Shown here: in pieces, positions 1 through 54,209 of the stretch
Position numbering within the stretch: position 1 is the stretch's first letter
Layout of the letters: each line of letters begins with the position of its first letter
DNA from: Serratia phage KpYy 1 41
Sequence record: NC_052991.1
Direction: 5' to 3' (one strand)
Length of the DNA: 54,417 nt
The notes under the pieces: generated by a model
Databases searched by the model: none
Told to the model about the DNA's origin: nothing
Seen by the model: only the letters and a program-made list of their open reading frames with translations
Program-made: the position numbers and the translations under genes

Positions 1-244
1 AAAGGTATAAAGTGAAATAGTACGCATGATTAAGCCCCTTGTAACAGAAGAGTGAAAAAATTATTTGAACAGCCGATCAAACGGCCCGTTTTACGCTCGC
101 GTAAATAAAACGTTTTACGCCCGAAAGAATAACGGCGCTCAACCTTACAGCGACGCCACACCGCCCGCGCGTCGTGATATATAACAGCCGCAATTATTGA
201 ATAACCGATCAAGATAATAGCCATTAACATGACGCGCCCCCGGA

Positions 245-1157: not shown

Positions 1158-1461
1158 TTTTTTCATATTATTTGAGTAACCGCACATAAAAGCGCCACCG
1201 ATCGCCACGCCGGGCCGCATTGCACCGCCACGCCCCACGGCCCCCCGCCCCGGCACACCGCCAAACGGCACGCGGCGCCACGTCCTAAACCTTTGAATTC
1301 TATACGAAAAACCGACGCCAACCGGGCCAAAACAGGCCGATCGGCGCGTAGGTTAAACCATTGATTTATAACGATTTGTACGAAATTCCGCCAAAAACGA
1401 CAACCGCCCACAACGGCAGGCCGCGCCGGGCCTGACTTTCTCTATAAAAATTCCCGACGGG

Positions 1462-3355: not shown

Positions 3356-4409
3356 GAAAGCCATTATCTTGCACCTCGGCGCGCTGTACGACGCGGCCAA
3401 CGACGGTAACGAGAAGGTCAAGCCGCTGCACCGCCTGATCCTGAACCTGCCGAACGTTGACGAAGAGGCGGTGACGTCTTTCGCTAAAGGAGCGTTAAGC
3501 GATGCACTCGAAAAGCATGAAGTGTCAGATCCGCCGGAGGCGTCTTACAAGACAATGGGCTTTGCAGCGTACGGCGAAGAGGTTGACAGCAAATTCGCCC
3601 TCGCCATCCCCGGGACAAACGCCATCGTCTTCCAGATCGAGAAACGCGAACGTGTGTTGCCCGGCGTCAGCGTACGAAATGAAGTCGTGAAGCGCATGGC
3701 CGCGTTGCGGGAGAAAGAGATCGAGGGTTGGGAGCCGAACCGCAAGGATTGGGCGCAGATGAAGGACGACGTGGAAGCGGAAATGCTGAAATACGCGCCT
3801 ATCCGCCCGTCCCGCGTCAACGTCATCCTGTCCGCCCCGTTCGTGTACGTGTTCACGTCGAGCGCGAAGACGGCAGAAGAGTGCAGCGCGCTGATCCGTA
3901 CCGCGCTCGGCACATGGCCCGTCGAACACCTCCTGCCGAGCGAGTATGAGCTGCGCCAGTTAATGCAGCGCGCGGTTCTCGGCCAGCAGGACGGCATCAA
4001 GGGCGATGCGTTTATCCACCTGAAACACGACGACGGTGACGACGTCAAGATGAAGGACACGGACATCTTCAAAGACGAGTCGGTGGTTGACCTGCTGTCC
4101 CGTCACTGGACTGTCCGCGCGCTGGATCTCGAAGTCGATACGCAATGCCCGGGCATCGACACCGTGTACTTCCGCCTGTCCGACAAAGCCATCTTGTCCG
4201 GTATCCACATCGGCGAGGCCGACGTTGATGCGAACTACGACGCCACGCTCGAACGCTACGGCACCGACGGCGGCCAGTTCCTTACCATGATGGCTAACCT
4301 GTTCCAACTCGATAAGTCCCTGCGTGCGGTGATCAGCGTGCTGGACGAGGCCGGGCAGGTAGTCGAGTACACCGGAACGCTGAACGACGAAGACGACGAC
4401 GAGGTTTAA
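3336..4409 (+). CDS. RdgC-like recombination-associated protein with acidic DEV tail
   Basis: At 357 aa its length and several local patterns recall RdgC. Examples are ...RTALGTWPVEHLLP versus E. coli ...RKSLGSLPVVPL, and a C-terminal FLTMMANLFQ... block versus FILMTGELAALIQ. It ends NDEDDDEV. Confidence 0.45.
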   Translation: MKIKGYEKAIILHLGALYDAANDGNEKVKPLHRLILNLPNVDEEAVTSFAKGALSDALEKHEVSDPPEASYKTMGFAAYGEEVDSKFALAIPGTNAIVFQIEKRERVLPGVSVRNEVVKRMAALREKEIEGWEPNRKDWAQMKDDVEAEMLKYAPIRPSRVNVILSAPFVYVFTSSAKTAEECSALIRTALGTWPVEHLLPSEYELRQLMQRAVLGQQDGIKGDAFIHLKHDDGDDVKMKDTDIFKDESVVDLLSRHWTVRALDLEVDTQCPGIDTVYFRLSDKAILSGIHIGEADVDANYDATLERYGTDGGQFLTMMANLFQLDKSLRAVISVLDEAGQVVEYTGTLNDEDDDEV

Positions 4410-45968: not shown

Positions 45969-46263
45969 AATTGTCCACCCATGTCACGTTTGCCCCGGCC
46001 TTACGCATTTCCTTATGGCGGTGATACTGCTGCGCCGTTGGTTCTTCGCCGGGGCGTTTGAATTCGATAAAAAGCACAATGCCGCCACGGATCAGCACGC
46101 GATCCGGGACGGCTTTTTTGCCGGGGGCGGTGAATTTCGACACCCACCACCCGCGCCCCTGCGCGTATTCGCAGCAGCGCTTTTCGACCTTCGATTCTCT
46201 GATTATCGGCTCGGCCATGTTAATCCTTACGGTAGAAATAGCCTTCCCACCCGGCAGCGCCAA
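45931..46263 (-). CDS. VRR-NUC domain nuclease
   Basis: 110 aa with an E...FIEFK core, in the usual position between the polymerase and the SNF2 helicase. Confidence 0.6.
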   Translation of the reverse strand: MALPGGKAISTVRINMAEPIIRESKVEKRCCEYAQGRGWWVSKFTAPGKKAVPDRVLIRGGIVLFIEFKRPGEEPTAQQYHRHKEMRKAGANVTWVDNFADFKNYIIAFE

Positions 46264-48292
46264 GCGGAAGCCCTTCGGCCCACGGCAGTTCGGCCGCCAT
46301 GCAGGAGATCAGGTCATCCACGGTCAGCGGGCTGTCTTCCGGCACTTCGGTTACGATTTCATCGTGGATGTGCATGACGATGCGGAAGCCCATGCGGTGC
46401 GCCTTTTTCAGACCTTCGGCGAGCACGTCGCGCGCCAGTGCCTGAACGATGTTTTCCACCAGCTTACCGCCGTGGCTGTAGATCTTGCCCCACTTGGTAC
46501 CGCTGCCTTCCACCTTGCCTTCGTACTGGAAGTTGGTCTTTGTGTACTTCTCACCTTTCTTCGGCCCCTTCTGAACCGTCATCTGGCGCTCGACCAGACG
46601 CGGGCGGAAGTAATACATTTTGCGGCCAGACGGCAGGCGGATGGTCAGGAATGGCTTCGTGTATTCGATGATCAGACAGCCCCATACGACGGCCTGACGG
46701 GTGCGGATAACCTTAAATACCGCGTTTTCGAGGTCATACCATGCGCGCACAATTTCCGGGCAAAGGTCGCGGAACGCCTGTACCGATTCTTCGGCTTCTT
46801 TCTGCGTCATGTGTACGCCCATGTTTTCGGCGTAGCCCCACAGTCCGGTCTTCTTGCCATTCTCGTCCATGTGGCCGCCGCCGAGGCGATAGCCCGCGCC
46901 GAGGGTAGCAGGTTTGGCTTTCGGGCGGTGCGGTTTCGTTTCTTCGTACGGCAGATTCAGCCAGTGCGCTGCAAAGGATCTGTACAGGTCATGCCCGATT
47001 GCCAGCGTGTCGAGGAACCAACGGCAGTCCGTCAGCCATCCGATAACCACGGATTCGATGGACGACAGGTCGGCAACGATGAACTTGTAGCCCGGCGTCG
47101 GGATGAAGGCGGAGCGGATGCAGCCCACCAGCGCGTCCATCGGCTCGCCAACGTACAGCGTCAGCGCATCAAGGTCGCGCTGGTGGATCATCTTGTTGAC
47201 GATGGACAGGTCGGTCACGTCCTCAATCAGCTTCGGCGTTCTCGGCAGGTTTTGGGTCTGGATACGACGGCCAGCCCAACGGTTCGTACGGCTCGCCCCG
47301 GCGAATTGCAGTGAGAAGCGGAAACGTCCATCCTCGCCAGCCGCGTCAATCATGGTCTGGTATTTGGACAGGGAGTTTTTCGCGCTGTTCAGTCGCATCC
47401 GCAGCACGCGGATCGCTTCCGGGTCAACGCCGTTTTCATCGGCTTCACGGATGACCTTGTTTACGGTGTCGCTGCGGAGGTCGCTGAACGGATAGCCGCG
47501 CTCTTTGAGCCACGGTGTTAACTGCGCCGGGGAGTTTGGGTTGTTCAGGCCAGTGATGTCGGCCATTTCTTCGATAATCTGCGGTTTGCGCGCTTCTGCG
47601 AGGGCCAGCGCCGAGTACGCGAATTCACGGTCAATCATCACGCCTGTGTCGTTGATAAACTGATCCAGCGCGTACATGTCCCACTCGGCGTCCAATACCG
47701 GGTACCGCATCAGGCGCGCTTTAATCGCCAGTTCGGTTTCAACGTCCCGGACGTTATATTTGCAGAAGTGCCACCAGTCTTCCGGGTCGGTCGCTTCGTT
47801 GCGCCACTCAAACGGGTTTTTCTTCGTGACGCGCTGCGGCTTGCTGAACAGGTCGATCAGGCGCTTGCCTTCCGGGTCTTTCAGTTTATCTTCCGGTAAG
47901 CCGATTTGCGTGCCGACGGCCAGAAGGTCGCCAGCGAAGCCGAGCATGTAGGCCAGCGCCATCGTACAGCGCCACGCTTTGTACGGTGTCTTGATGCCGA
48001 GAACGCGGCGGGTCATCACGCGTTCGAACTGCGCATTAAAGGCCCATTTCTCCACGTCCGGGTCTTCCAGCGCTTCACGCAGTTCGCCGGGCAACTTTTT
48101 GCCTCGGTGAAGGTCTACGTGCTGCACCGCTCCGCCGTTGATAGACCATGCACCCATCAGCACTTTCGTCGATTCGTCATTCGAATAGCGGTCGAATCCG
48201 CTCGTTTTAAGGTTCACCCGGCTTCGGGATTCATAGTCAAGATTAATGCAATCTGCCACGTCAACGCTCCTATATGAAAAAAGCCCGCACAC
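46220..48292 (-). CDS. DNA polymerase, family A
   Basis: Motif B-like RPKAKPATLGAGYRLG, motif C VMHIHDEIV, and motif A-like region ADLSSIE. 690 aa. Confidence 0.85.
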   Translation of the reverse strand: MCGLFSYRSVDVADCINLDYESRSRVNLKTSGFDRYSNDESTKVLMGAWSINGGAVQHVDLHRGKKLPGELREALEDPDVEKWAFNAQFERVMTRRVLGIKTPYKAWRCTMALAYMLGFAGDLLAVGTQIGLPEDKLKDPEGKRLIDLFSKPQRVTKKNPFEWRNEATDPEDWWHFCKYNVRDVETELAIKARLMRYPVLDAEWDMYALDQFINDTGVMIDREFAYSALALAEARKPQIIEEMADITGLNNPNSPAQLTPWLKERGYPFSDLRSDTVNKVIREADENGVDPEAIRVLRMRLNSAKNSLSKYQTMIDAAGEDGRFRFSLQFAGASRTNRWAGRRIQTQNLPRTPKLIEDVTDLSIVNKMIHQRDLDALTLYVGEPMDALVGCIRSAFIPTPGYKFIVADLSSIESVVIGWLTDCRWFLDTLAIGHDLYRSFAAHWLNLPYEETKPHRPKAKPATLGAGYRLGGGHMDENGKKTGLWGYAENMGVHMTQKEAEESVQAFRDLCPEIVRAWYDLENAVFKVIRTRQAVVWGCLIIEYTKPFLTIRLPSGRKMYYFRPRLVERQMTVQKGPKKGEKYTKTNFQYEGKVEGSGTKWGKIYSHGGKLVENIVQALARDVLAEGLKKAHRMGFRIVMHIHDEIVTEVPEDSPLTVDDLISCMAAELPWAEGLPLGAAGWEGYFYRKD

Positions 48293-48295
48293 GGC

Positions 48296-48322
48296 GGGCC
48301 TTGAATTACCGCCCGAGGGCGT
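48296..48322 (-). terminator. intrinsic terminator/attenuator between the SSB-like and polymerase genes
   Basis: On the minus strand GGCCCGCCGTGTGCGGGC is followed by TTTTTT. It lies immediately 5' of the polymerase start. Confidence 0.45.
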
Positions 48323-48325
48323 AAA

Positions 48326-48922
48326 TTAAACTTCGTCTTCCCAATCTTCGTCTTCATCCCACGCATCAGACGTGTCAACGCGACCTTCACCGAACGGTTC
48401 GTCGTCTTTGCGCTTGAGAACGGAAATCAGGTTGGCGTTGACGCGTTTGCCGAATTTGTTTTCCTGCGACCACGGACGGATGACGACAGACACCCAACAA
48501 CCACCGTAGATCTCTTCCAGAATTTCGGAAGAAGTAGTCAACTCTTCGCGCTCGATGTTATACACATCCGGGCGTTTGCTTTCGCGCGCTGAGATAACCC
48601 ACATCCCTTCGCATTCCGGTTTGTCCGGGAAATCGGTGTCGCCGTCTTTGATGAACAACATGGACGGGGCAACTTTCAGCGCGCCTGTCTTGTGGTTCTT
48701 CTTGGTGACTTCGATCTGCTCACGGATGATTTTCTCGATCTCGCCGTGGCTTTCTTTCGGCATCAAAAGCGTCAGCGAGTATTTCGGCTCGCCGCCGTCT
48801 TCGCCGCCGTACGGCTTATCGAGGTGCGGGTAAGAAGCACGTACGTTAGAAATCTTGATGTGACCAGATTTGTACAGCACGCCATTCTTGACTTTCTTCG
48901 CAGGGACTAATTTCTCGGCCAT
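48326..48922 (-). CDS. DUF2815 ssDNA-binding (T7 gp2.5-like) protein with acidic DEV tail
   Basis: 198 aa, with SYPHLDKPYGGEDGGEPKYSLTLLMPK near the N-terminus, typical of DUF2815. It is partnered with DUF2800 and PolA, and ends DEDEDWEDEV. Confidence 0.6.
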   Translation of the reverse strand: MAEKLVPAKKVKNGVLYKSGHIKISNVRASYPHLDKPYGGEDGGEPKYSLTLLMPKESHGEIEKIIREQIEVTKKNHKTGALKVAPSMLFIKDGDTDFPDKPECEGMWVISARESKRPDVYNIEREELTTSSEILEEIYGGCWVSVVIRPWSQENKFGKRVNANLISVLKRKDDEPFGEGRVDTSDAWDEDEDWEDEV

Positions 48923-48934
48923 CTTAATATCCTC

Positions 48935-48985
48935 GGTTTACTGTTTTACGGGTTTACTTTCTACGGTTTTACGGGTTTACACTTC
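48935..48985 (-). promoter_or_regulatory. repetitive A-rich leader (GTAAAC-like units) upstream of the SSB-like gene
   Basis: On the mRNA strand the leader reads GUAAACCCGUAAAACCGUAGAAAGUAAACCCGUAAAACAGUAAACCGAGGAU-AUG, a 16-nt unit repeated. Confidence 0.45.
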
Positions 48986-50314
48986 GTCATCATCTTCGTC
49001 GTCCCACGCCCCGGAATATTTGCCGTCCAGTGGTGGCCGCTTATCGGTCAGCGGTGCCAGTGTCGGCTTGCCTTCCGGCTTGTAGACTATCCCCGCGATG
49101 ATGTTCGGCGCGCCAGCCCGGGACACGCCCAATTCATCCCTAAGCACTTCTTCCATCTGCGCCGGAGTACGCAGTTTGCGCTCGATGTATTTGTCCTCTT
49201 CGATATCGAGGAACTTGAACAGCGCGATCGCATCTTTCTCGTTGGCGAATTTGCGGTTTGTCCGCGACTCCACCAGCTTTTGACCCGGTACCTTCTCGCC
49301 GTTCATTGCGCGGCGTTCCAGTTCGAAGTCAAGGCGCGAGAACCAGTTTTCGACCACCTTGCGGTATGGCAGGATCTTCGCCATCTGCTCGGTTGTCAGG
49401 TTCCCGAACTGCGCACGCCGGAATTTATACTCCTGCGCCAGCGCATCACGCAATACTGACATTTCTTCCTCCCCGAATTCGGATTCAAGGAATTCCACAT
49501 CCCCGCCCACCGCGCATTCCATCATGTACGCTATCGCTGCGCAGTTATGTGCTGCCCGGCAAAAGCGACACCCTTTCAGGGATGCGCGGCGCGGCGCGGT
49601 AAGGCTCCATGCCGCTGCAATCCGCTCCCGGGCGTACTCCGCAAACTCCAACAACTCGTCAATCGTGATTTCCCACGTATCGAAGTGGTCGAGTCGCGGC
49701 TGCGCAATCCGGATGATGATACGGTCAAACTCGTATTCATCCGCGAAAGCGCGGTACGCACCGTACGCGTAAAGTAGCGCCTGCGGGTTCCCTTCCGCGA
49801 AAACCTGAACGCCAGTACCGTATTTCAGGTCGGTCACGATCAGGGTGCGGTCACGGATGATGATGTTATCCGCCGTTCCGCCCTGTGCGACAAACTCTTC
49901 CGGTTCTTCGTCAGGTTCATCCGGGTTCGCTCGCGGCATCAGGTCGGTGAACCATACCCTGATTTCCGTGAACATTTCACCCTCTTCAAATCGGCACCAG
50001 TCCACATACTCCTGAACGTAGTCGATCATTGAACGCGTGATGGGGATGTCATGACTGACATCGCCTTCCGTGATCGTCTCGACGGTACCTATTAAATGGG
50101 TTGGCCGGACATCCGTTCGCAGCCATTGTTCGGCGATTCCGTGGGCCACCGTTCCTTCCGCCGCCTCGTAGATGGTTTCGTCATGCTCGAAAAGCCCTGC
50201 TATCAGGCTTCCGGAACATGCCATCCAACGCGCTGACGCCGAAGGCGCGAAGATTGAGTGACCGCCACCGCCGAATTCCCGCATGATGCGGACTAACAGC
50301 GACTTACTACTCAT
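48977..50314 (-). CDS. DUF2800 PD-(D/E)XK nuclease with acidic DEV tail
   Basis: The N-terminus HSIFAPSASARWMACSGS matches the DUF2800 hallmark (SxxxRWxxCPgS). It ends AWDDEDDDEV. Confidence 0.65.
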   Translation of the reverse strand: MSSKSLLVRIMREFGGGGHSIFAPSASARWMACSGSLIAGLFEHDETIYEAAEGTVAHGIAEQWLRTDVRPTHLIGTVETITEGDVSHDIPITRSMIDYVQEYVDWCRFEEGEMFTEIRVWFTDLMPRANPDEPDEEPEEFVAQGGTADNIIIRDRTLIVTDLKYGTGVQVFAEGNPQALLYAYGAYRAFADEYEFDRIIIRIAQPRLDHFDTWEITIDELLEFAEYARERIAAAWSLTAPRRASLKGCRFCRAAHNCAAIAYMMECAVGGDVEFLESEFGEEEMSVLRDALAQEYKFRRAQFGNLTTEQMAKILPYRKVVENWFSRLDFELERRAMNGEKVPGQKLVESRTNRKFANEKDAIALFKFLDIEEDKYIERKLRTPAQMEEVLRDELGVSRAGAPNIIAGIVYKPEGKPTLAPLTDKRPPLDGKYSGAWDDEDDDEV

Positions 50315-50636
50315 TCGGATACGCCTTTATCGCATTGAGGAATCGGTGTTGGCCGACTCGCTCAATCGTCGCTACTAATGCCCTAGCGCCTGCCCCGCTG
50401 TAATTATTGCGGCCTGCGTTAAAGCGAGTCTTCGCCACGTCGTCCCACCAGACGTCACATACTCGATAGCCAGATGCAGCATGGGTTACGAGCAGCGGCG
50501 CTTCGTGTTTCGAGACAGGGGAAGTAACTCTGAACAGCACATCGCGATCACCGATCTGGAAACGAAACTCCGCCCACGTACGCGCGAGAACTGCGCCGCC
50601 GGATGTTGCTACGTTGGTGAAAGTAATGCTGGTCAC
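50307..50636 (-). CDS. hypothetical protein (109 aa)
   Basis: ORF between a strong terminator and the nuclease gene. Confidence 0.45.
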   Translation of the reverse strand: MTSITFTNVATSGGAVLARTWAEFRFQIGDRDVLFRVTSPVSKHEAPLLVTHAASGYRVCDVWWDDVAKTRFNAGRNNYSGAGARALVATIERVGQHRFLNAIKAYPNE

Positions 50637-50654
50637 AATTGCCTCTCCGTTGGT

Positions 50655-50684
50655 TGTGAAAAACGGCCCCCCGAAGGGAGCCGA
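50655..50684 (-). terminator. strong intrinsic terminator with UUCG tetraloop
   Basis: On the minus strand CGGCUCCC-UUCG-GGGGGCCG is followed by UUUUU. Confidence 0.6.
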
Positions 50685-50698
50685 TGCGGGGCGAAAGA

Positions 50699-51103
50699 TT
50701 AAACGTCGTCTTCTTCGCCGTTACCGCCTTCATCTTTTTCAGCCAGTTTGGCTTCGCACATTTCGACGATCTCGTCGAAGTGTTCTTCCTTCGCTTCCGC
50801 GACTTTCGCGAGGCCGAAGTGAGCGGTGATTTTCTTGGCTTCCGGCGCGCCGAACGCGTCTTTAACCGCAACGACAGCCGCGACTACTTCGTCTTTGGTG
50901 TGTTTCGGCTTGACCGCTTTGGTTTCAGTTTTGGATTTAGCGCCGCCTTTAGCACCGCCTTTGGCGGTTGTTTTTTCGGTGGTTTCGCTGCCAGCGTCAG
51001 CAGAAGTGTTCACCGCGCCGCCTTTCAGTGCTGCCAGAACGCCTTCCAGCAGGGTGTTGGTTTTTTGTTGTTCAGCCAGCAGTTGTTCGAAGATACCAGA
51101 CAT
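50699..51103 (-). CDS. hypothetical Ala/Lys-rich protein ending EEDDV
   Basis: First gene of the minus-strand replication operon. It has a low-complexity KGGAKGGAK centre and an acidic C-terminus. Confidence 0.5.
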   Translation of the reverse strand: MSGIFEQLLAEQQKTNTLLEGVLAALKGGAVNTSADAGSETTEKTTAKGGAKGGAKSKTETKAVKPKHTKDEVVAAVVAVKDAFGAPEAKKITAHFGLAKVAEAKEEHFDEIVEMCEAKLAEKDEGGNGEEDDV

Positions 51104-51155: not shown

Positions 51156-51185
51156 AGTATGGCCCAAATGCCGAATCGCTGTCAA
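51156..51185 (-). promoter_or_regulatory. minus-strand promoter (TTGACA-N18-CATACT) of the replication operon
   Basis: Reverse complement of tgtcaa at about 51180-51185 and of agtatg at about 51156-51161. Confidence 0.4.
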
Positions 51186-51274
51186 ACACTTTTTTCAAAA
51201 TTTTTTATTCGGGTACCGCAAGCCCTTTGTTTTCCGGACATAAAGCGCCTTTGGTACCCGGATAAATGGCCAAC

Positions 51275-51303
51275 TTGACAGATGTCAAGCCCGGATATAA
51301 TAT
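51275..51303 (+). promoter_or_regulatory. plus-strand promoter (TTGACA ... TATAAT) with overlapping inverted repeat
   Basis: The sequence reads TTGACAgaTGTCAAgcccggaTATAATAT. The -35 element is part of the palindrome TTGACA-ga-TGTCAA. A second inverted repeat, CGGGTACC...GGTACCCG, lies 20-60 bp upstream. Confidence 0.5.
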
Positions 51304-51345: not shown

Positions 51346-51627
51346 ATGCGATTTCCAGATTGGGCTTTAAACGACGACCGTATGCGGGTCAAATTTCTTA
51401 TGATGCAAGCGGCTTTGGAGGTAGACCCGAATGCCAGAATGGCCGAACTGGCGAAGGCAGCGAAGATCAGTTACCCGACATTGTTATGGGCTGTGCAGAA
51501 CAACGTAACGAGCAGCGTGGCCGAGAAAGTTTGCAAAGCCGTCCCTCACTGCGGCATCCGTCCGCATTGGCTGACTAACCCTTCATGGATCAAAACGGAC
51601 AGCGAAACAGGGGAAATCCTTGAATGA
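51346..51627 (+). CDS. small HTH DNA-binding protein (93 aa)
   Basis: The segment ELAKAAKISYPTLLWAVQN is helix-turn-helix-like. It is the first gene after the divergent promoter region. Confidence 0.45.
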   Translation: MRFPDWALNDDRMRVKFLMMQAALEVDPNARMAELAKAAKISYPTLLWAVQNNVTSSVAEKVCKAVPHCGIRPHWLTNPSWIKTDSETGEILE

Positions 51628-54209
51628 ACTACTGGCAAGAGTACGGCGAAACGCTTTGGGGGAATGGGTACACCATCGTACCTATCTACGCCCCGGACGC
51701 CGATAAGAAGGGCGCGGGCAAACGCCCCATCGGCGAAGATTGGGAAAGAACAATCAATGATAAGGAGCAGATCCAGCGTTGGGCGAAACGCTATACGAAT
51801 AACGGCATCGGGATTCTGACCAAATACACCCCGGCGGTTGACATCGACGTTTACGATGAAGACGCCGTGGCGCACATGGCTGACTGGATCGCCGAGAACG
51901 TCGGTGCAGCGCCATGTCGTATCGGCCGGGAGCCGAAGAAACTCTACCTGTACCGAACCGAAAACCCGTTCGCCAAAGTTAAGTCCGGAGTATGGGAAGA
52001 CGATTTCGGTCAGCGCCATGCCGTTGAAATCCTCGCCGACGGACAGCAGTTCGTTGCGTATGGTATTCACCCGGACACCAAGCGGGACTATTACTGGATT
52101 GACGGCGAAAACCCGCTGAACAATGCCGCCGACCTTGACCTCGAAGAGATCAGCCTCGATACCGCTCGCGAGATCGCCGCCGAATTCGACCGATACGCGA
52201 AGGACTTGGGCTGGACAATGGTCAAACGGCCAATGAACGGTTATGAGTCTATCGGTTCGGCCGACGATGACGATTGGGCCGCGCTGTCTGACGTCAAAAA
52301 GTGGGACGGCACGTACGATGAACTGCGCGACATCGTCCTGAAATACCCGAACCCGGAAGATTACGAGAACTACATCACCGTACTGGCCGCGCTGCAAATT
52401 TCCTGCCGCGATCAGGACGAGGCGAAGGCCATTGCCCGCGAATGGGCCATGCAGGCACACAACTTCGACGAAGGTGATTTCGAATACAAGTGGGATAAGG
52501 GCTTCGCGCACAACTCGACTCGACTGATCACGCTCGGCACCATCATCAAAGAAGTGCAGGACATCGAGAAAGCCGAGCAGGAAGAACGCGCCATCGAGTA
52601 CCGCGAGGCTTTCGCCGAGTGTACCGAGGCGAATGACTGGAATGCGTGGGCCGAATCATTCAAAAAAGCGCAGATTTTCGGGCTTACCCGCAAGGCAATC
52701 GTGCAGATTGCGGCAGAAGCATACCGCAGGATCAACAACTTCCGCCTCACTGCGGGCGATAAAAAGGAGCTTTTGGGCTTCGATTATGGGTCGAAAGAGA
52801 CACCGCAGTGGCTGAAAAACTTCGTTTTCTCGAAGGCAAATGACAGTTTTATCGAAAAATCGACTGGCGATTACATCACAAAAGGCGCTTTCGACGTCGC
52901 TTTCGCGAAAAAGTGCGTGTTTGAGGAAGAATCATTCAAGCCTGTCCACTATGCGTCGGTAGTCCGCCCGGTTCCTATCGTTTGGGACGCGATGTACTAC
53001 CCGGCGATGCACGGTGACATGCCGGAATCGGTGTGGAAGCCGAAAGAGGGAGTGATCGGGCCGGAATTCTTTATTGACGACCGTGGGCGTACGTGGCTGA
53101 ACTCTTTTGACCCTGAATCCATTCCGGAGGCCGCGACTGACCTTTCTCCGTACGACAAAAAGGCGCTGGAGATCATCAAAGACTTCTTCATCGTGCTTTT
53201 CCCGAACGAGAAGGAACGCCGCTATGTTCTGGACTGGATGGCGTGGGTTATTCAGCACCCAACGAAACGCATCAACTACTCGCTTCTGATCCGTGGTGCG
53301 CATGGTTCCGGTAAAACGACTCTCGGCATCATCATGTCGCGGATGCTCGGCGCGTCGAACGTGGGCTATGTGTCAAACACCGTGATGAATGGACGTTTCA
53401 GCGATTGGGCCGAAGGTCACATCCTGAAAATCGTGGAAGAGATCTACGACAAAGGCGATCGGTACAGTGCGGTGGAACGCCAGAAGGAATTCATTACAAA
53501 CGACCGCTTCCAGATTGAACCAAAGGGCCGCAAGCCGAAGGAAGTCGTGAACACCAGCAGCAAAATGATGTTCACCAACCACTTCAACGCATTGCCACTC
53601 GATGAAAACCAGCGTCGTTATCTGGTGGTGTCCACGCAGGCCGAAAATCATCTGGACATGGAGCGGGTTTACGGGTCGAAGACTGAACGCGCGCGCTTCT
53701 TCAAAAACGTGTACCGGGCAATCGAAAACCACGCACCTGCTATCAAAAAGTGGTTCCTCGATTGGGAGATCGGAAAGGATTTCGATGCCAAAGGACACGC
53801 ACCGCAGGACACCGAAGCATTCGCGGTCATGGCCGACGCGTCAGACGATGGCGTGGAAGGCGCAATCGCACAAATGCTTCGTGACGGAACGACGCCGGGC
53901 GTACACCGCGACGTCATCTTCGTGCCGTCCCTGAAAAACGCATTCCTCGAAATGACAGACGTGGAAATGCCGAAGACGAACCGCCTGAAAAACATGCTTA
54001 TGGAATTGGGATTCAAGCCGGGCGGCGTGGTCAAATTTGGTGGCGAATCTGGCCGCGTTTATGTCCGGAAGCGGGTCAAAGGGGCATTCGATGACGCGGG
54101 GAAACTTAACTCGTCATGGGTGCAGACTACGTTAAAACGTCATGACGCAGAAGTCGAAAAACTGGTCGGCAAAAAGCCAGACCCGTTTGACGATGAAGAC
54201 GAAGTTTAG
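51624..54209 (+). CDS. DNA primase-helicase (prim-pol / D5-like with P-loop NTPase), acidic DEV tail
   Basis: 861 aa. It has an N-terminal bifunctional primase-polymerase-like region, a Walker A IRGAHGSGKTTL, and a Walker B-like LVVS. It ends DPFDDEDEV. Confidence 0.75.
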   Translation: MNYWQEYGETLWGNGYTIVPIYAPDADKKGAGKRPIGEDWERTINDKEQIQRWAKRYTNNGIGILTKYTPAVDIDVYDEDAVAHMADWIAENVGAAPCRIGREPKKLYLYRTENPFAKVKSGVWEDDFGQRHAVEILADGQQFVAYGIHPDTKRDYYWIDGENPLNNAADLDLEEISLDTAREIAAEFDRYAKDLGWTMVKRPMNGYESIGSADDDDWAALSDVKKWDGTYDELRDIVLKYPNPEDYENYITVLAALQISCRDQDEAKAIAREWAMQAHNFDEGDFEYKWDKGFAHNSTRLITLGTIIKEVQDIEKAEQEERAIEYREAFAECTEANDWNAWAESFKKAQIFGLTRKAIVQIAAEAYRRINNFRLTAGDKKELLGFDYGSKETPQWLKNFVFSKANDSFIEKSTGDYITKGAFDVAFAKKCVFEEESFKPVHYASVVRPVPIVWDAMYYPAMHGDMPESVWKPKEGVIGPEFFIDDRGRTWLNSFDPESIPEAATDLSPYDKKALEIIKDFFIVLFPNEKERRYVLDWMAWVIQHPTKRINYSLLIRGAHGSGKTTLGIIMSRMLGASNVGYVSNTVMNGRFSDWAEGHILKIVEEIYDKGDRYSAVERQKEFITNDRFQIEPKGRKPKEVVNTSSKMMFTNHFNALPLDENQRRYLVVSTQAENHLDMERVYGSKTERARFFKNVYRAIENHAPAIKKWFLDWEIGKDFDAKGHAPQDTEAFAVMADASDDGVEGAIAQMLRDGTTPGVHRDVIFVPSLKNAFLEMTDVEMPKTNRLKNMLMELGFKPGGVVKFGGESGRVYVRKRVKGAFDDAGKLNSSWVQTTLKRHDAEVEKLVGKKPDPFDDEDEV

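Follow-up and report, generated by a model that had tools for sequence, protein, structure and literature searches.

[quoted passage not shown] Such an arrangement raises the question of whether these repeats act in the mRNA and, if so, whether they serve to bind the SSB itself, to admit ribosomes, or to some other end.

The SSB leader and its surroundings

Over bases 46000-51000, sequence identity is 99.5% with Salmonella phage SAL_R1 and ~98% with phage Chi, which makes the window a Chivirus genome, family Casjensviridae. The leader lies between genes encoding an exonuclease and the SSB, with a DNA polymerase gene further downstream (Table 1). The SSB matches PF10991 (Enc34_ssDNA-bd) with E=8e-31 and 107.5 bits, against a gathering cut-off of 26, and has 87-88% identity to the crystallised ORF6 protein of phage Enc34 (PDB 5ODJ, 5ODK and 5ODL; E=5e-117, 4.8e-117 for 5ODJ). 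Its C-terminal tail is acidic (...DEDEDWEDEV), and the exonuclease has a similar acidic tail, ...WDDEDDDEV* (48977-49003, minus), that resembles the ...DEDEDWEDEV* of the SSB (48326-48360, minus). A terminal EV followed directly by the stop codon is common to Chi, Enc34, N137, SAP012 and Redjac. By analogy with the gp2.5 tail in T7, the two tails may share a docking partner in the replisome. Elsewhere in the module, a divergent pair of sigma-70-like promoters at 51156-51303 (TTGACA-18-CATACT on the minus strand, TTGACA-17-TAATAT on the plus strand) separates the minus-strand replication operon from plus-strand regulator and primase genes, and a strong terminator-like hairpin is present at 50664-50683 (minus), after the first minus-strand gene.

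Table 1. Positions in the window of the SSB leader, its repeat units and the flanking genes and signals
Feature	Position	Strand	Details
DUF2800 / PD-(D/E)XK exonuclease gene	48977..50314	minus	445 aa; ORF list; PF10926, E=2e-71
Six-unit phased array, GUAAA(A)CC type	48935..48980	minus	sequence; Tandem Repeats Finder
Unit 1, GUAAACCC	48980-48973	minus	includes exonuclease stop UAA, 48979-48977
Unit 2, GUAAAACC	48972-48965	minus	
Unit 3, GUAGAAA	48964-48958	minus	
Unit 4, GUAAACCC	48957-48950	minus	
Unit 5, GUAAAACA	48949-48942	minus	
Unit 6, GUAAACC(G)	48941-48934	minus	runs into the Shine-Dalgarno sequence
Intercistronic SSB leader, complete, 54 nt	48923..48976	minus	between exonuclease and SSB genes
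Shine-Dalgarno sequence GAGGA	48930..48934	minus	fused to last unit; 7 nt 5' of AUG 48922-48920
SSB gene, Enc34-type / gp2.5-like (PF10991, formerly DUF2815)	48326..48922	minus	198 aa
Intrinsic terminator in the 66-nt SSB-polymerase spacer	48274..48302	minus	stem 48280-48302, T-run 48274-48279; terminator scan
Family A DNA polymerase gene	46220..48259	minus	GTG start 48259; Shine-Dalgarno GGAG 48266-48269; Pfam-confirmed

Written as mRNA, the spacer reads gug-UAA-ACCCGUAAAACCGUAGAAAGUAAACCCGUAAAACAGUAAACCGAGGAUAUUAAG-AUG, and the 54 nt of the leader are rich in A (25 A, 11 C, 10 G, 8 U). That tandem units occupy the spacer between two coding genes and adjoin the RBS had been proposed by a sequence-only reading of this DNA, and they do. 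The unit was then taken to be a GUAAAC hexamer, whereas it is in fact an octamer, GUAAA(A)CC, with lengths of 8, 8, 7, 8, 8 and 8 nt in order and a total content of five GUAAA and one GUAGAAA. The 5' end of the array also falls within the exonuclease stop codon, correcting the extent first noted, as the 3' end of the exonuclease gene (..GAA GUG UAA) makes up the first repeat unit. In phage Siskin, an RBS is annotated at the place equivalent to the GAGGA sequence (locus 3932-3935). The terminator predicted between the SSB and polymerase genes likewise exists, and is also annotated in Siskin, but with its 9 bp stem (AAGGCCCGC..GCGGGCTTT) at the position in Table 1 rather than at 48296-48322; the latter interval takes in part of the terminator together with a second small hairpin, CGCCC-GA-GGGCG, at 48310-48321.

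Several measures agree that the array is not a chance product of base composition. Tandem Repeats Finder reports it with a period of 8 and 5.9 copies. The 15-mer GTAAACCCGTAAAAC is present in two exact copies and, when up to 3 mismatches are permitted, has 9 matches where 1.1 are expected, a number reached in none of 100 shuffles. With 5 GTAAA in 60 nt the minus strand here attains the window maximum for either strand; counts of 3 to 5 are confined to ~56 overlapping start positions, and the GTAAA positions listed form no second cluster. Lag-8 self-similarity is 0.59, compared with a mean of 0.252 (sd 0.064), making this the top site among all 54,417 bases. Elsewhere in the genome, A-rich windows are explained by lysine-rich coding sequence or by short leaders of the ordinary kind, and two copies of GCGTAAAACG (GTAAAAC) located 24 nt apart at 88-118 (minus) are coding, within a 66-aa ORF at 30-230 (minus), and were discarded as coincidental. 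Separately, a G-rich low-complexity stretch at ~1190-1290 (minus), containing ..GGGGCGGGGGGCCGTGGGGCGTGGCGG.., has high self-similarity at lags 5, 7, 8 and 10.

The leader was also described at the outset as unstructured, and the folding calculations bear this out. Its minimum free energy is -0.6 kcal/mol per 60 nt, compared with -14.8 +/- 4.6 for all minus-strand 60-mers, and ranks third of 18,119; of the two 60-mers with less structure, one is, from the ORF map, antisense to plus-strand genes and the other is within coding sequence. When 118 nt around the leader are folded, z = +0.5. There is no match to an Rfam family anywhere in the window. A promoter within the spacer was considered as an explanation and set aside, since the promoter scan identified no sigma-70-like sequence between the exonuclease and SSB genes.

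SSB leaders of related phages and similar arrays elsewhere

Exonuclease-SSB spacers were taken from other Casjensviridae genera, in which the coding DNA is ~72-75% identical or only partly alignable. Nearly all of the genera sampled have an array of the same type, with unit sequences and copy numbers (3-9) that vary and a period that stays at ~8. The arrays include GUAAAMCC x6 in Chi, GUAAAACM x9 in the 79-nt leader of SAP012, GUAAAACC-type units x4-5 in Redjac and Stilesk, 4-5 units in KPN N137, a degenerate array in Enc34, CUCCGUAA x5 in JC01, where all copies are perfect, CGAAA(A)CC x8 in MA11, and 3-5 units in each of Smarc1, BUCT551, Kokobel1, ASh-2020a, SS2019XI and phiAxp-2. Phages with Xylella, Stenotrophomonas and Clavibacter hosts (Salvo, Suzuki and Clavibacter phage 33), with SSB identities of 30-35%, have CGAAnnn or CGACAnn x5-7. 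Some relatives are near-leaderless, with spacers of 1-16 nt (1 in R16L, 15 in SNUABM08 and 5 in BPP-1; also L055 and L072), and Vibrio phage 1.094.O has a promoter-like SSB leader rather than an array. UAA stops in each of the three frames were considered as the selected trait; the CGAAA and CGACA units of MA11, Smarc1, Salvo, Suzuki and the Clavibacter phage lack UAA, and this was rejected.

A scan of IMG/VR with an alignment of 12 SSB sequences added 79 loci, and many of these metagenomic relatives also have phased repeats in the SSB leader, at SSB identities down to ~30%; the core CG(U)AAA is kept over the same range. A lack of repeats in the leaders of homologous genes would have counted against the operator idea, which survives this comparison: most Casjensviridae genera and many metagenomic relatives have repeats of ~8 nt. 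For a quantitative test, 49 distinct leaders of at least 30 nt were compared with composition-preserving shuffles. Periodicity was detected in 23 of the 49 at p<0.05 and in 17 at p<0.01, with a best lag among the periodic leaders of 8 in 17, 9 in 4 and 6 in 2. Control segments of the same length from the same loci, taken just past the SSB stop codon, within the SSB gene and within the upstream gene, gave 0/47, 0/47 and 0/46, respectively, at p<0.01, with scattered lags. Measured from unit to unit in 23 leaders, the spacing is 8 in 55/93 cases, 9 in 20/93 and 7 in 9/93, and in 72% of cases the leader has less structure than at least 90% of the same-length windows from its own locus. Throughout, the array is on the sense strand, extends from stop codon to Shine-Dalgarno sequence at any length from 27 to 80 nt, and is poor in RNA pairing. 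The architecture, namely position, period, lack of structure and fusion to the Shine-Dalgarno sequence, is conserved while the sequence itself turns over, in what looks like slippage and concerted evolution.

Within the window, SAP012 and JC01, the array is confined to the SSB leader of the sequence scanned; the lag-8 scores in SAP012 and JC01 are 0.89 and 0.87 compared with 0.52-0.54 for the runner-up sites. A regulon of similar arrays dispersed in the genome was accordingly rejected for these three phages. Folding of ~85 nt upstream together with the leader from 8 genera with RNAalifold, a method blind to pseudoknots, gave 0 consensus pairs and, with no stems from RNAalifold and no Rfam match, a conserved hairpin or pseudoknot 5' of the array was also abandoned as a candidate.

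Arrays of this general type do occur at other genes. In an IMG/VR phage with no tblastx similarity to the window (L114, IMGVR_UViG_3300049427_000022; minus), an array of GUAAAGAA x5, or (GTAAAGAA)x5-6, starting ~130 nt into the reverse-complemented locus occupies the leader of a 138-aa gene (phrog_11771, of unknown function), next to which, on its downstream side, is a major head protein gene (phrog_29). When IMG/VR was searched for four GTAAA at 8-nt spacing, the matches listed were mostly AT-rich giant-virus contigs and an element of gut phages, and among these matches (GGUAAAAA)4 elements are present at many intergenic gut-phage sites. Together, the array at the head gene and the gut-phage elements indicate that an A-rich array of 8-nt units has no intrinsic tie to SSB genes. 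Human-gut phage contigs among the matches listed (GC 0.43-0.59) each contain several copies of TTTAAAG-(GTAAAAAG/GTAAAAGG)x4-AGAGCCTTCTTGC, an intergenic and conserved element that is often located shortly 5' of an ATG, with no link to SSB genes, and is possibly a promoter or leader. The IMG/VR loci with this element (L104, L109, L110, L115, L117-L120, L122, L124, L127, L128, L130, L133, L135-L139, L145, L147, L151, L157-L159, L169-L171, L173-L175, L178-L180 and L183) are mostly from sample 3300045988. A further contig of 34.9 kb (L116, IMGVR_UViG_2795385501_000001) has non-coding (GGTAAATA)x8 at 1287-1347, and ~200 nt past these repeats a sequence that, judged by eye, is a candidate tRNA-like sequence.

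Proposed autogenous operator, possible enhancer and less probable roles

The array is placed at the RNA level because it is restricted to the sense strand, extends from stop codon to Shine-Dalgarno sequence, is poor in pairing, and has an 8-bp period that would put successive sites off one face of the DNA. Our tentative preference, held with confidence just short of even, is that this cis element forms the SSB translation-initiation region and is an autogenous operator, with feedback by the SSB predicted. The operator interpretation with which the analysis began is in this sense plausible and partly supported, and remains putative. The lattice would consist of single-stranded 8-nt units, poor in G and U, that begin at the upstream stop codon and lead into the Shine-Dalgarno sequence. 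As a phased repeat the leader is conserved in the family, it has no counterpart in the rest of the genome, and it is unstructured; when free, it would present an open landing site for ribosomes and would permit stoichiometric SSB output from an operon whose exonuclease and polymerase are presumably needed only catalytically, with the terminator 3' of the SSB gene expected to lower polymerase further relative to SSB. Once ssDNA is saturated, surplus SSB would coat the lattice cooperatively, with one monomer per ~8-nt unit, and the slots in register as numbers 7 and 8 would then be AGGAUAUU, with the Shine-Dalgarno sequence, and AAGAUG.., with the start codon, blocking initiation.

What is known of these proteins is consistent with such a lattice. 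Each Enc34 ORF6 monomer binds 8 modelled nt and a ninth phosphate and makes base-specific hydrogen bonds, at three positions in all; the protein has been modelled as a contiguous filament that the authors likened to gp32 (PMC5686142). For T7 gp2.5, the site size is 7-8 nt and the cooperativity ~110 (PMC10359462). The ~8-nt period matches both the 7-9 nt footprint of the Enc34 SSB and the gp2.5 site size and, by analogy, fits a gp32-like operator. A more specific form of the model is conceivable, in which the units are a ruler phased at the ~8-nt monomer footprint along which a weakly cooperative SSB spreads over the Shine-Dalgarno sequence and AUG, and to this we give somewhat less than even confidence. 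Repeat phasing would then substitute for the gp32 pseudoknot as the device that confers specificity. That the period equals the footprint is something we infer rather than a known rule, and the T4 period (5 nt) differs from the gp32 site size, so that the argument from period has no precedent. Any such control must also be dispensable, given the near-leaderless relatives (R16L, SNUABM08, BPP-1, L055 and L072). The operator model is further weakened by the absence of a structured nucleation element 5' of the array, by the aperiodic gene 2.5 leaders of T7-like phages and by the array at a head gene described above.

The main alternative is that the leader is a putative unstructured A/C-rich standby site or S1-dependent enhancer and insulator, with no feedback from the SSB, and that the repeats are a by-product of spacer growth by slippage of an A-rich unit. 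We consider this possible, if on balance doubtful. Almost devoid of structure, the leader lies directly 5' of the Shine-Dalgarno sequence, where single-stranded CA- or AU-repeat tails strongly boost initiation (PMC5934652), and it precedes the one gene whose product is needed stoichiometrically, as the flanking exonuclease and polymerase are not, with a terminator following the SSB gene. Recent slippage is suggested by the perfect copies in JC01 and by a super-period of 16 nt in SAP012, an unrelated phage has the similar 8-nt GUAAAGAA array in front of a head-module gene, and the gene 2.5 leaders of T7-like phages are likewise A/C-rich, yet aperiodic. Enhancement by standby tails, however, saturates at 16-18 nt (PMC5934652), whereas the SSB arrays are 30-80 nt long, which suggests a function beyond ribosome landing. 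Lack of structure alone also requires no period, and the period remains ~8 nt across genera despite changes in the unit, with the core CG(U)AAA retained to ~30% SSB identity; nor is there such an array in the leaders of the capsid, decoration and tail genes of the window, SAP012 and JC01. The operator and enhancer readings are compatible, as in T4.

It is improbable that another factor that binds single strands or RNA, such as a RegA-like repressor, Hfq, CsrA, Rho or a nuclease, controls SSB synthesis or mRNA stability through the array. The conserved core and phased repetition would suit a multimeric or cooperative binder, and these phages encode many proteins of unknown function, but the search turned up no candidate phage RNA-binding protein, and differences in the unit between phages of the same host (Chi and SAP012, Redjac and Kokobel1) argue against a conserved host factor. 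For three of the host factors, composition and period speak against a role: an 8-nt period is a poor match for the (ARN)n triplets of Hfq, the only GGA available to CsrA is the Shine-Dalgarno sequence itself, and a rut site for Rho, which is C-rich, G-poor and ~70-80 nt long, does not resemble a leader with nearly as much G as C (11 C and 10 G) across only 54 nt.

A functionless, slippage-prone microsatellite in a dispensable spacer is very improbable. Copy number and unit sequence do turn over rapidly, and some relatives have no spacer, but the array is at the same gene in >20 lineages with SSB identities down to ~30%, is unique in three genomes, is consistent throughout in period, lack of structure and Shine-Dalgarno fusion, and has no counterpart in the control segments of the same loci. 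Least probable of all is a DNA-level element, in the form of origin iterons, sites for a primase-helicase or regulator, or recognition sites for primase on the complementary strand: the tandem octamers are inside the replication module, ~2.6 kb from the primase gene (51624-54209) and in the same module as the divergent promoter region, but they have neither the helical phasing nor the independence from strand and translation signals of iterons, as the 8-bp period puts sites off one face of B-DNA, the array is on the sense strand only and fits exactly between stop codon and Shine-Dalgarno sequence of the same gene at every length, RNA structure is always depleted, and the array is missing where the SSB gene is translationally coupled.

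T4 gp32 is essentially the only case in which it is understood how a phage matches SSB dosage to its ssDNA and replisome enzymes, and the array is a conserved, easily manipulated candidate for such control in another family of SSBs. Variants from nature are at hand, with 3-9 units, differing unit sequences and leaderless relatives, as is a solved protein-ssDNA structure for an 88%-identical SSB (Enc34), and together these make self-recognition by phasing at the footprint directly testable. If the ruler form of the operator model is correct, this would be a second, independently evolved system of SSB autoregulation after T4 gp32, based on phasing instead of a pseudoknot, and one widespread among Casjensviridae and their uncultured relatives. 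Should the array be an enhancer and nothing more, it would be a compact, structure-free natural leader for high output, with possible use in expression design, and even then it could help to annotate SSB genes and operons, both in Casjensviridae and in phages from metagenomes.

Comparison with known leaders

In models of the von Hippel type, gp32 reportedly recognises its own mRNA by the lack of structure. The gene 32 operator of T4 and RB69 consists of a pseudoknot followed by an unstructured tract of >40 nt that includes UUAAA/UAAA repeats and the RBS, and gp32 coats this tract cooperatively (PMC535899). The sequence of a T4-type gene 32 leader was confirmed as UUAAUUAAAUUAAAUUAAAAAGGAAAUAAA-AUG, with a repeat period of 5 nt. 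As in T4 and RB69, the array described here is in the leader of the SSB gene's own mRNA and contiguous with the RBS, is long (>40 nt), A-rich and unstructured, and has short repeats that contain UAAA; the proposed mode of binding would also be similar, with the leader coated cooperatively by an OB-fold SSB that is monomeric, forms filaments and has an acidic tail at its C terminus. The two differ in that the SSB is of the Enc34/gp2.5 type (PF10991) and not gp32, the Chivirus leader has no 5' pseudoknot or conserved structure, the UAAA repeat takes the variant form of an 8-nt unit, GUAAAMCC, rather than one of 5 nt, and the Chivirus array is intercistronic, starting in the upstream stop codon. 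Repression at the Chivirus array is predicted by analogy.

The array also resembles standby sites and S1-dependent enhancers, as at the MS2 coat gene, in being a repetitive single-stranded stretch, with few bases able to pair, directly 5' of the RBS of a gene that needs high output. Unlike the standby tails, it is natural, conserved in a family, phased at 8 nt and built on the core CG(U)AAA and, at 48 nt here, it is among SSB arrays that are three to five times the 16-18 nt at which those tails saturate.

With T7 gene 2.5, the homology is in the fold and role of the SSB. The T7 leader (L103, NC_001604, 308-358), transcribed from phi2.5, has a 5' hairpin and then GAGAAACCAAACGAAACCUAAAGGAG, with 2-3 units of the AAACC type. 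In contrast to the array, the T7-like gene 2.5 leaders are short and A/C-rich, start at a phage promoter and have the hairpin first, and none of those compared (L228-L307, ~45 distinct) is phased at p<0.01; extension of the array rule to these leaders was rejected, as there is no significant periodicity. Autoregulation of gp2.5 did not come up in the papers searched, RNA binding is not on record for SSBs of the Enc34 type, the Enc34 SSB paper (PMC5686142) nowhere mentions RNA, and the full-text literature, which leaves most subscription journals outside it, gave no account of these repeats or of autoregulation by an SSB of the gp2.5/DUF2815 type.

The gene V protein of filamentous phages, which binds ssDNA, represses translation of gene II by means of an unstructured leader. 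That operator is in the mRNA of another gene and is a single site of ~16 nt with no repeat array. The unstructured repeat leader of an SSB gene is of a kind already known, with a clear precedent in T4; what is new is that the array is family-wide, has an 8-nt phase and no pseudoknot, and belongs to the gene of a different SSB family.
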